From an uncultured Oscillospiraceae bacterium (GTDB lineage Bacteria; Bacillota; Clostridia; Oscillospirales; Oscillospiraceae), in NCBI GenBank assembly GCA_910577415.1, contig CAJTLK010000001.1, forward strand, positions 1 to 56,979: a stretch of 56,979 bases of DNA, written 5' to 3'. Shown one piece after another: positions 14,968 to 54,399 of the stretch. The notes under the pieces are model-generated. The model was not told where the DNA came from, searched no databases, and was given only the letters and a program-made list of their open reading frames with translations. The translations under genes and the position numbers were made by a program. How positions within the stretch are numbered: position 1 is the first letter of the stretch; every line of letters begins with the position of its first letter.

Positions 14968-15747
14968 ATGCAGAAGTTTATCGAGAGCACCGGAAAGACG
15001 GAGGAAGCCGCCATTGCCGCCGCCCTGGAGCAGTTAGGACTGTCCCGGGAGGAGGTCTCGGTGGAGGTTTTGGAGCTTGCGAAGCCCGGCTTCCTGGGCA
15101 TTGGCGGCACTCTTGCCAAGGTCAAGGTGACATACGAAGGCCCCGACGAGCCTGAAGAGGCCCCCACCCCTGCTGTGGAGGAGATCGCTCCCGCCGATGA
15201 GGCCGACAGTGTGGAATATGCCACCATGGACGCGGCTTTTGCTGAGGAGGAAGAGACTGCGGCCACCCCTGCCGCCGCTGATGACGAGTATGCGGCAAAG
15301 ATCGTGGATTTTCTGAGCGGACTGTTGGAGCGTATGGAGGTCAACGCTGTGCCCCACGTGTCGGTGGACGCCGAGGGCAATTACCTGGTGGAGCTGGAGG
15401 GCGAGGGTCTGGGAGCTGTTATCGGACGCCGGGGCGAGACCCTGGATGCGCTTCAACAGCTCACAGGCTACGCCGTGAACCACGGCCAGCAAAAGCGGGT
15501 GCGGGTGCGCATCGATGCCGAGGGTTACCGCTCCAAGCGGGAGGAGTCCCTGGAGCGCATGGCCCGCCGTATGGCCGACAAGGTGGTGCGCTATCGCCGG
15601 AACATGACCCTAGAACCCATGAACGCCTATGAGCGTCACGTGGTGCATACCGCCCTCCAGGACTATCCCGGTGTGACCACCTACTCCATCGGCGCCGAAC
15701 CCAACCGGCGCACCGTGGTGGCCTACGCCCCCGGCGGAGAAGAATAA
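14968..15747 (+). CDS. jag: RNA-binding cell elongation regulator Jag/EloR (KhpB)
   Basis: Jag_N (GKTEEAAI...GFLGIG), KH (IGRRGETLDALQ) and R3H (MNAYERHVVH) domains. Confidence 0.95.
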   Translation: MQKFIESTGKTEEAAIAAALEQLGLSREEVSVEVLELAKPGFLGIGGTLAKVKVTYEGPDEPEEAPTPAVEEIAPADEADSVEYATMDAAFAEEEETAATPAAADDEYAAKIVDFLSGLLERMEVNAVPHVSVDAEGNYLVELEGEGLGAVIGRRGETLDALQQLTGYAVNHGQQKRVRVRIDAEGYRSKREESLERMARRMADKVVRYRRNMTLEPMNAYERHVVHTALQDYPGVTTYSIGAEPNRRTVVAYAPGGEE

Positions 15748-15765
15748 GAGAAGACGAGAAAAGAG

Positions 15766-15798
15766 AACCCCCACGGGTCATTGACCCGTGGGGGTTTT
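15766..15798 (+). terminator. Terminator of the rpmH-jag operon
   Basis: AACCCCCACGGGTCA-T-TGACCCGTGGGGGTT followed by a T-rich tract. Confidence 0.85.
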
Positions 15799-15825
15799 GT
15801 TGTTGTGCGCTGTTGTTTGCGGGGG

Positions 15826-16106
15826 CTGTCACGCTGCGAACAGGTCAGGACGCTCGGTCACTTTCCCTCTGACTCAGGCTGGTCTCCGGGCCGCTCTGCG
15901 GCCCTGCGCTCGCCTTCGCTCCAGTCCAAGCTCCCTCGCTAACCTGTTCTCCGCGCTTCTCTCCTGTCACGCTGCGAAGCGGGGTGGTCGCTTCGGGATA
16001 TAACTCCTCCGACTTCGCAAAAAAGCTTCATGCGGCTTTGCCGCCCTAAGCTTTTTCGCTCCGCTCCGTCGTTATCCCCTCAGCACCCCGCTTCTCCGCG
16101 CTTCTC
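15826..16106. repeat. Two tandem rod-like hairpin units with identical 15-nt termini
   Basis: Units 15826-15961 and 15964-16106 both begin CTGTCACGCTGCGAA and end TTCTCCGCGCTTCTC; interiors differ but each is self-complementary. Confidence 0.8.
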
Positions 16107-16108
16107 AG

Positions 16109-17434
16109 TTACCACCAAAAGTTCCCGAACGGCCAGGTGCTGAAGCCACTGTTGCCGGTGCTGGGCTGACGCTGAGCGGGCTGCAGGGACTCCTGGTAGC
16201 TTTTCTGAAGCTGATCCATGGCCTCGGAGCGGGCCTGGTCATACTCGTCCAGGGTGGCGGCGACGGTGAGGGTCTCGTTGTTCCGCCAGAGGGTGAAATT
16301 CACTTTCTCTCCGGCCTTGTGGGCTTTAACGGCCTCCTTCAGCTCGTCGGCGCTGGTGATGGCGGTGTCGTCCACGGCGGTAATGATGTCGCCTTCCTGA
16401 ATGCCCGCCTTATCGGCGCAGGAGCCGTCCAGAACGGCGGAGATATAGGCACCATCGGGGATGCCATAGCGCTGAATGGCTTCGTTGGAGACCTCCTCCA
16501 TCAAAATGCCCACATTGGGCTTGCCGGTGACATAGCCCTTCTCAATAATGTCGCTGACCATGTCAATAACATCATTGATGGGAATGGCGAAGCCGATGCC
16601 CTCAATGGAGGCGTTGGTGGAACCGTTGTTGGAATACTTGGCGTTGGTAATGCCGATGCACTCTCCATAGGTGTTGAAGAGGGGGCCGCCGGAGTTGCCT
16701 GAGTTGATGGCGGCGTCGGTCTGCATCACGTTGATGGTGTTGCCGTCGGACATGGTAATGTTCCGATCCAGAGCGGAGACATAGCCGGCGGTCAAGGTAA
16801 AGGTAAGCTCACCCAGGGGGTTGCCGATAGCAACCACCTGCTGGCCCACCTTCATATCGTCGGAGTTGCCCACCACCACGGTCTGGAGGCCGGAGGCGTC
16901 GATCTTCAGTACGGCGATGTCATTGGCCTCTTCGCCGCCTACCAGTGTGGCGTCATAGGTGGTGCCGTCGGCAAAGGAGACCTTCAGGTCGTCCACGCCG
17001 TCAATGACATGGTAGTTGGTGAGAATATAGCCGTCGGAGGTAATGACAAATCCGGAACCGGCCACCGGGTTACTGACCACCTGGCCCCAGTAGTTGGTCT
17101 TCACATCGCCGTTGACGCCCACAACGCTGCCCAGATTGGCGGCGTAGACTTGATCTACGGTCATAGCGTTCTGGCCGTCCACCCGGGCCACATGCACTGC
17201 GGTGGGGCCGCGGTCACTGACGTTGATGGTGGTGCCGGTCCCGCCAAAGCCGGCCAGCAGTCCCGCCGCCCCCATGCCTGCCGCGCCTACCGTGCCGCCC
17301 AGCAGGGCGCACACCAGACATAGAGCGACCATTTTTGCGGTGCTGTGCTTTTTGACCTTCACCGGGGCAGCCGCCGGGGTCGCAGAGGGGTCAATAAGCT
17401 GATCGTCCCATTTGTTATAATCGTTAAAATACAT
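16109..17434 (-). CDS. htrA: HtrA/DegP-like serine protease with PDZ domain
   Basis: GSGFVI, TNYHV, DIAVL, QTDAAINSGNSGGPL, PDZ; N-terminal TM; AAGGAG RBS before MYFND. Confidence 0.93.
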   Translation of the reverse strand: MYFNDYNKWDDQLIDPSATPAAAPVKVKKHSTAKMVALCLVCALLGGTVGAAGMGAAGLLAGFGGTGTTINVSDRGPTAVHVARVDGQNAMTVDQVYAANLGSVVGVNGDVKTNYWGQVVSNPVAGSGFVITSDGYILTNYHVIDGVDDLKVSFADGTTYDATLVGGEEANDIAVLKIDASGLQTVVVGNSDDMKVGQQVVAIGNPLGELTFTLTAGYVSALDRNITMSDGNTINVMQTDAAINSGNSGGPLFNTYGECIGITNAKYSNNGSTNASIEGIGFAIPINDVIDMVSDIIEKGYVTGKPNVGILMEEVSNEAIQRYGIPDGAYISAVLDGSCADKAGIQEGDIITAVDDTAITSADELKEAVKAHKAGEKVNFTLWRNNETLTVAATLDEYDQARSEAMDQLQKSYQESLQPAQRQPSTGNSGFSTWPFGNFWW

Positions 17435-53949: not shown

Positions 53950-54363
53950 GGGGGCCATCTTTTCCGGGTGGAAAAGACGCCCCCCAGGCCCCCAGAAAAG
54001 ACCCCAGGGGGAGAGAGTTTCGACTCTCTCTCCCCCTGGACCCCCACTCTCACCGACCAAGGAGAGGGGGACTGCGGTCCCCCTCTCCTTGGAACCCTCC
54101 CCAGGTCGTCCTCCTATAAGCGATTGGCCCGGCCCCCGCACTTCGTAGCGGTGGCCGGGCACGACAAACCCCTCGGCCGTTACAAAGTAAGGCCGAGGGG
54201 TCTTCTTGCCTCAGGAGAACGGCTTGGGTGGGTTTCCAAAGGGTAGGGGCCGCAGCCCCTGCCCTTTGGTCGTTTCAAGGGAGAGTCCGAGGGGGAAATC
54301 GAAATCCCCCTTCGGGGTTTCTTCGGGGGTTTGGGGGCATTCTTTGCCCCAAAGAATGCCTCC
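53950..54363. repeat. Composite element: two diverged, inverted three-hairpin arms around two central hairpins
   Basis: Left arm 53950-54097 and right arm 54230-54363 share hairpin order, TTCG and TGCG loops and linkers, but not stem sequence. Confidence 0.8.
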
Positions 54364-54399
54364 AAAAGACCTCCCCGCCATTGCTGGCGGGAAACAAGA

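Follow-up and report, generated by a model that had tools for sequence, protein, structure and literature searches.

Between the genes jag and htrA of an uncultured Oscillospiraceae bacterium lie two rod-shaped DNA units that belong to a dispersed and polymorphic family of hairpin elements, with a strand-specific fold whose outer stems covary and with copies that commonly start at the stop codon of a gene. This stop-codon placement across the whole rod family is the main feature that was missed by the earlier note on this DNA, a first reading made from the sequence alone. That note did recognize the rods as a modular, non-autonomous, multi-copy element, and this has been borne out by the dispersed copies, the covariation, and the retention of ends while cores change. 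We consider it fairly probable, with a good deal of room for doubt, that such non-autonomous hairpin elements are handled as single-stranded DNA, enter stop junctions in a patch-like manner, and undergo local duplication and core replacement.

The rods between jag and htrA and their relatives

The window, i.e. the whole stretch of 56,979 nucleotides that was analysed, carries the pair on the minus strand behind the host gene htrA (16109..17434, minus strand; a trypsin and PDZ protease), which has its stop codon at 16109-16111 and a C-terminus resembling that of element-free orthologues. A spacer of 3 nt (16106..16108; offset +3) separates this stop codon from the stop-proximal rod (15965..16105; 141 nt, core subfamily B), which is followed by a 4-nt junction (15961..15964), the distal rod (15827..15960; 134 nt, core subfamily A) and a short G-C tail (15821..15826) of a kind that is frequent behind copies in the same genus, all on the minus strand. 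The two rods score 103 and 140 bits, respectively, with a covariance model that had both in its training set, and their apical hairpins on the minus strand, at 16032-16044 and 15888-15904, carry C-AAA-G and C-AGA-G triloops. The convergent neighbour is jag/KhpB (14968..15747, plus strand), and the locus lies near the origin region, with genes that we take from their translations to be dnaA, rpmH, rnpA, yidC and jag nearby.

The earlier description of two units of 136 and 143 nt with a 2-nt gap, two exact 15-mers, closing stems and apical hairpins is correct in all these details. The proposed fixed 15-nt ends are indeed identical within this array, but the ends conserved in the family are only about 11 nt long, with unit boundaries at 15827-15960 and 15965-16105. 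Likewise, the cores are nearly unrelated when compared pairwise (49% alike, against 40% for shuffles with a maximum of 49%), whereas within the family they are subfamilies with shared loop motifs and hybrids. No intrinsic terminator (a short GC stem with a U-tract) was found within 15826-16106, in agreement with the view that the rods are not an ordinary terminator. The terminator that had been assigned to jag is present as a terminator-like hairpin at 15764-15798, between the two genes and outside the element, but it scores on the minus strand as well as on the plus strand. A public contig covering 15400-16487 shows zero differences to the window, both units included, and its run may be the source of the window itself; the sequencing runs that contain the stretch 15826-16106 are mostly labelled mouse gut or feces. 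Two assembled contigs from one RNA study, which may include DNA and from which strand, ends and processing are not readable, join htrA and the rods.

Searching 1.9 Mb of the genome for the two 15-mers gave four exact copies of the left and two of the right one (four with one mismatch), always as element ends. By BLAST and HMM, 31 merged loci, fragments included, were found in the own genome. A covariance model built from 80 units, with 27 candidates scored per genome, matched 23 times in the own genome and detected the element in 17 of 120 family genomes, with real members also in two genomes of another family of the same order; among 150 genomes drawn from the phylum there was no real member. 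Two phylum-level and two order-level model matches were discarded as chance, because they lie inside coding sequence, and the model found no match at window positions 53950-54391. Rods were detected by BLAST in 21 of 24 congeners and in none of 16 genomes of other families. The exact two-end pattern occurs at no fewer than 121 GTDB loci, and among the matches listed Oscillospiraceae form the majority, including Flavonifractor plautii, Pseudoflavonifractor and Intestinimonas; the family is present in the cultured type strains of F. plautii and Pseudoflavonifractor capillosus. Temperate phages carry the family too, and IMG/VR contributed 13 phage loci with copies behind terminase, capsid and scaffold-like genes (named from translations). 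GenBank phages and PLSDB plasmids gave no rod match, and two matches of a one-end pattern in viral contigs were set aside as chance. In Rfam 15 the window has no match at the gathering threshold and only noise below it. No description of the rods was found in Rfam or in openly readable literature, including the excerpts available of repeat papers such as PMC1590033, PMC8632094, PMC12045711 and PMC2267715, so as far as these sources reach the family is undescribed; subscription journals and supplements, e.g. those of large motif surveys, may hold a description.

Placement on stop codons and comparison of filled and empty sites

Of 208 array starts, 110 lie no more than 4 nt to either side of a sense stop codon (-4 to +4) and involve 73 gene families; for random intergenic positions the corresponding figure is 143 of 3995. 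Starts at 7-50 nt from a stop are scarce (10 of 208, against 610 of 3995 random intergenic positions); the gene calls come from our own hexamer model, and a few of the units are false positives of the pattern finder. The offsets of the 110 are -1 (40), +2 (21), -2 (13), +3 (13), 0 (10), +1 (6), -4 (4), +4 (2) and -3 (1). The 98 arrays off a called stop comprise 5 that come after a short ORF, 26 into which a reading frame extends, 14 behind a remnant of the element, 2 beside tRNA genes and 51 without explanation. The GA-rich strand has its 5′ end at a sense stop in 11 of 27 own-genome loci and in 36 of 45 congener loci, and the same holds for the start of 62 out of 100 GTDB units among the matches listed, when 25 second-in-tandem units and 3 edge cases are excluded. 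Where compared, protein C-termini at rod sites match those of element-free or other orthologues.

Rod orientation tracks the gene: it is always the sense strand that carries the fold, also on lagging-strand genes such as htrA. A single-contig genome has arrays on both strands of one replichore. Local GC skew is in agreement at 22 of the 24 own loci, but replication was not accepted as what determines placement, because skew and gene strand are confounded and because htrA, like several arrays of the single-contig genome, lies on the lagging strand. DNA chemistry alone does not account for landing at stop codons. Some copies immediately follow the 3′ end of a tRNA or lie within tRNA/rRNA clusters (L305:418-556; L082; L005; own genome C19:26530), which implies that translation is dispensable for some placements. 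In a phage scaffold-like gene, a rod inside the last codons supplies the stop codon (L221, L223, L224).

In all four congeners with the same order of genes the jag-htrA site is empty, and three more, in which htrA has other neighbours, likewise lack a rod at htrA. One congener carries mirrored A-rich short repeats behind both stops in its jag-htrA gap, which is free of rods (L043:1920-2150). Among phages, 2 contigs carry the rod at one site where 17 others lack it, a second site has 1 filled and 1 empty contig, a third filled/empty pair is more diverged, and at two further sites only filled copies were seen. In the first two pairs the rod takes the place of 6-7 bases after the T of the stop codon and 4-8 extra bases are present downstream of it; the stop codon is changed (TAA vs TGA in one pair, the reverse in the other), and there is no target duplication. 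Such junctions fit neither a classical MITE nor a clean HUH paste. They may have changed after insertion, since the flanks are not identical (96-99% alike, with 2-4 mismatches in 90 and 3-8 in 250 positions at the two sites).

At a chromosomal site that was followed with a primer from the F. plautii type-strain record, all 45 sequences are filled, in at least six configurations. Of the 15 spacers that are complete, 8 contain a single unit and the others contain two, arranged in one way in 6 and in another way in 1; the partial sequences add further forms, and the offset ranges from +1 to +4; several of the partial contigs continue into unrelated genes and may be chimeras. No variant was seen in four DNA runs of the present species. 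Contigs that change to unrelated downstream genes in or just after a rod were noted repeatedly (L240, L242, L252, L253, L257, L269); these switches reflect either chimeric assemblies or rearrangements mediated by rods. Right behind the last rod there is often the start of a second, unrelated repeat, which is followed by runs of GTAG-type REPs (L230:927-1300 and many other loci), and at one site in phages a further repeat has been partly replaced by the rod. Several repeat families gather at these rod junctions.

Fold of the sense strand and exchange of cores

Each unit folds into a rod, as had been claimed, and does so beyond chance and more strongly on the GA-rich minus strand, which is the sense strand of the rods. 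The z-scores of the two units are -3.79 and -7.79 (minus) and -1.98 and -4.65 (plus) for RNA folding, and -3.11 and -6.50 (minus) and -2.16 and -4.33 (plus) for DNA folding; two distinct rods form when the tandem pair is folded as a whole (z -4.89). The rod base hardly varies among 110 non-redundant units and is non-canonical, with A.A, A.G and G.T followed by a GGA/GNA loop in which the middle bases need no pairing, and it is the putative protein-binding site. The Watson-Crick stem beyond it uses three to four pair types per position. Over the ten outer pairs, to which the count was restricted because an all-subfamily MAFFT alignment misaligns the inner cores, 97.2% of the cells are paired, against 76.2% in shuffled alignments (none of 500 as high) and 22-57% in slid controls, and 137 cells are altered on both sides, with the proviso that the shuffle control leaves relatedness in. 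The outer stems covary strongly.

Rod tips are triloops in 92 of the 110 units, 90 of them closed by C-G and 60 of the GNA or ANA type (leaving 32 of the 92 outside these types), with only four GNRA tetraloops; the control value for terminator-like hairpins is 9 of 218. G-U or G-T makes up only 5.3% of the inner pairs. The d(GNA) triloop with C:G closure is described as an unusually stable DNA motif (excerpt of PMC3201870). The C-G-closed GNA/ANA-type triloops point to single-stranded DNA as the folded form, and the form that is recognized may well be a DNA strand. To this extent the loop sequences favour the earlier proposal of a single-stranded DNA substrate. The proposed link to RAYT/TnpA or reverse transcriptase found no support, and at the loci searched no RAYT, IS200 or reverse transcriptase gene is flanked by rods.

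Clustering of the cores gave four large groups and several small ones, and units in the own genome range from 41 to 239 nt, including collapsed forms and side-branch insertions. A prophage-like region of the own genome (C41:4477-10066), with terminase and portal-like genes by translation, holds five or six copies, one of which is a 239-nt unit with two side-branch hairpins. Paired arms of the rods are more strongly linked (0.75 and 0.63) than neighbouring segments (0.15-0.28), which suggests that the copies are helix-by-helix mosaics, although selection for pairing could produce the same pattern.

Most arrays (175 of 211) consist of a single unit and the largest have up to six called units, separated by junctions of 0 to 12 nt, most commonly 3-4 nt, of varying sequence. 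Identical ends are found in 11 of 20 within-array pairs, compared with 22 of 603 pairs between arrays. In contrast, 38 of 47 units have their best core match outside their own array, and the cores are less than 75% alike in 26 of 37 adjacent unit pairs, 9 pairs being near duplicates; 27 near-identical core pairs sit at different sites. At rpsJ, a site-specific end variant is common to four congeners, yet two different cores are present. The locality of the ends was significant by permutation in two genomes (p 0.0025 and 0.0015) and not in two others, i.e. the genome with the longest arrays (p 0.60) and one with three units (p 0.34), and a fifth genome had no multi-unit array; these p values overstate the effect because kin and copies are not independent. 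Local ends combined with best core matches elsewhere support the notion of fixed ends with interchangeable cores.

Under the reading that we favour, a new site would be colonized by a patch-like insertion beginning at the stop codon, and copies that damage genes would be removed by purifying selection. Units would then be duplicated locally at the base of the hairpin, extending the array, and conversion-type recombination with other copies would later replace whole cores or individual helices. In the htrA transcript, the rods would form a 3′-UTR barrier as a side effect.

Known repeat families and rival explanations

The best description at present is a non-autonomous single-stranded DNA hairpin element of the REP/ERIC kind that differs in defining features from each family with which it was compared. 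Like the rods, REP, REPIN and BIME repeats are non-coding extragenic hairpins that occur in tandem arrays, keep the hairpin while the interior varies, and are often near stops (excerpts of PMC3337134, PMC3733652 and PMC12306157). Unlike REPs, the rods lack a short REP palindrome in each arm (the arms pair together but are no separate short palindromes), the GTAG/CGTC tag and a bracketed RAYT, the RAYTs in these genomes bearing other repeats; they also show a much tighter stop placement and helix-by-helix mosaic subfamilies. There may also be a likeness to repeats in Bacillus and to inner motifs of ERIC. ERIC/IRU and MITEs such as Correia, RUP and YPAL share with the rods a length of about 130 nt, one long imperfect rod, cotranscription behind genes and an orientation dependence (excerpts of PMC2229807 and PMC3184786). 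ERIC, however, has terminal inverted repeats, a terminal TA and a target duplication, whereas the rods are GC-rich, have asymmetric ends, lose target bases and form head-to-tail arrays of unlike units. BOX, SPRITE and MIRU are set apart by their descriptions (excerpts of PMC3049150 and PMC3184786): BOX is modular like the rods, but its modules are serial, with terminal inverted repeats and target duplications, and not nested arm pairs; SPRITE has the same enrichment at gene 3′ ends but is terminator-like with a U-tract; and the ends of MIRU overlap adjacent genes, but it has 4-nt direct repeats.

For other systems the differences are more basic. The near-identical core pairs at different sites, with no constant repeat between unique spacers, distinguish the rods from CRISPR and TIGR arrays. 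Integron attC sites are strand-specific single-stranded DNA rods that stand directly behind stops and in tandem, with the core sites RYYYAAC and GTTRRRY. Such a core-site pair is present in none of 209 rod arrays, and the host genes of the rods are conserved housekeeping genes (jag and htrA in the window; neighbours elsewhere judged from translations only). Elements of the IS200/IS605 type insert 3′ of a fixed tetra- or pentanucleotide with no gain or loss of bases; before the 209 rod arrays there are 97 different 4-mers, and bases are both lost and gained at the junctions.

No enzyme for rod movement was found in the own genome, at Y1, RAYT and reverse transcriptase loci, or by comparing element-rich with element-poor genomes, and the mode of movement is therefore unproven. 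A bolder form of the mobile-element idea, which we put forward tentatively as having a modest chance, is a new class of mobile DNA, in host and phage alike, that senses where the stop lies by way of a ribosome in termination or of the transcription-translation complex, alters the junction when it enters, and exchanges hairpin tips between copies by cuts across the folded rod. It is rather unlikely that the rods are a REPIN-type element moved by a host RAYT or an IS200-type Y1 HUH transposase, even though the DNA-type hairpin, the tandem arrays and the variable spacers that keep the hairpin are REPIN-like (excerpt of PMC3337134). RAYT queries matched in 13 of 23 element-rich against 5 of 23 element-poor genomes, kin not being independent, and Pfam Y1 in 12 of 23 against 3 of 23, in a search that missed one own-genome Y1 gene; because of this miss, the apparent absence of Y1 from 11 of 23 element-rich genomes was rejected as a finding. 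Against such a mover, five element-rich genomes, one a single contig with long arrays, gave no match in either search, and a convincing rod stands at only 1 of 28 Y1/RT loci and 1 of 29 RAYT loci, each time beyond another gene; the variety of preceding 4-mers indicates that there is no fixed target. The two Y1 genes of the own genome bear their own unrelated short repeats. One, which we take to be RAYT-like (C7, L406:1490-1990), is the gene missed by the Pfam search and has GTAG-type palindromes inside the reading frame; the other encodes a 254-aa transposase with repeats on its flanks (C18, L021:1335-2283). The genome contains 40-96 matches to short GTAG-type motifs. A Y2 search gave no match even in control genomes.

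The constant sense-strand fold, lagging-strand htrA included, and the recurrence of rods at rpsJ, rpsO, grpE, dnaK, hfq and phage capsid or terminase genes (gene labels at sites other than htrA and jag being our presumed assignments) would suit a host-selected 3′-UTR RNA element, such as a stabilizer, processing site or termination modulator, placed by selection and spread by slow recombination. REPs at 15 nt or less from stops stall ribosomes (as cited in PMC12306157, excerpt), and a REP can act as a terminator-stabilizer (bioRxiv 10.64898/2026.03.23.713779, excerpt). We doubt this explanation as the primary one, in view of the triloops in place of GNRA or UNCG tetraloops and the patchy occupation of orthologous sites with 1 to 6 units per site; a 3′-UTR role can well be secondary to that of a single-stranded DNA element.

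RNA-templated insertion guided by the terminating ribosome, in which the element would be joined to an mRNA cut at the stop and then copied back into the end of the gene by a reverse transcriptase, appears improbable. The two offset peaks are three bases apart and both phage junctions begin after the T of the stop, with extra bases present; RVT_1 matches came from 15 of the 23 element-rich genomes and from 7 of the 23 element-poor ones (kin not independent), and the own genome has a reverse transcriptase in what we presume to be a DGR-like arrangement. Eight element-rich genomes, on the other hand, gave no reverse transcriptase match, there was no convincing rod at such loci (one weak match in 30), copies stand behind tRNA genes too, and the loops are of the DNA type. 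The own-genome enzyme, of 404 aa, is encoded behind a 151-aa gene without Pfam match (C16, L165:1156-3254).

An ERIC-, Correia- or RUP-like MITE of the classical kind, dependent on a DDE transposase, is very improbable and already largely refuted. The rods are short, non-coding and multi-copy, have a long stem-loop and show filled and empty sites, and they resemble ERIC in size, in their long imperfect palindrome, in standing behind genes and in having internal deletions and side-branch insertions (excerpts of PMC2229807 and PMC3184786). They have no terminal inverted repeat, however, as at most two of five terminal bases pair in 248 units; target duplication is not evident (38 of 209 arrays have matches of 3 or more nt, the control figure being 24, and neither of two filled/empty pairs shows a duplication); and no IS630-type DDE or IS110 (PF01548) transposase was found in the own genome, which is 94.9% complete. 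The processed structured-RNA cassette array that had been suggested, CRISPR- or TIGR-like with the 32-nt junction as repeat and rods as cargo, is barely credible: arrays of several units do have local ends and different cores, and the additional unit of one phage pair is stop-proximal, but most copies are singletons without any junction, the junctions vary in length and sequence, the cores are a limited set of self-complementary subfamilies at many sites rather than foreign spacers, the flanking genes are housekeeping or virion genes, and another phage pair has its extra unit on the distal side.

For practical work, it is relevant that rods sit at contig breaks and apparent chimeras of gut metagenome assemblies and that they can lengthen predicted genes. 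More generally, the rod family makes it testable how small palindromic repeats move and why many of them sit behind stops, as its copies are polymorphic in closely related phages and its junctions are unlike those of MITEs or IS200-type elements. If the proposed reading is true, an enzyme able to put DNA at the ends of genes while leaving the encoded proteins untruncated would represent a new insertion mechanism.
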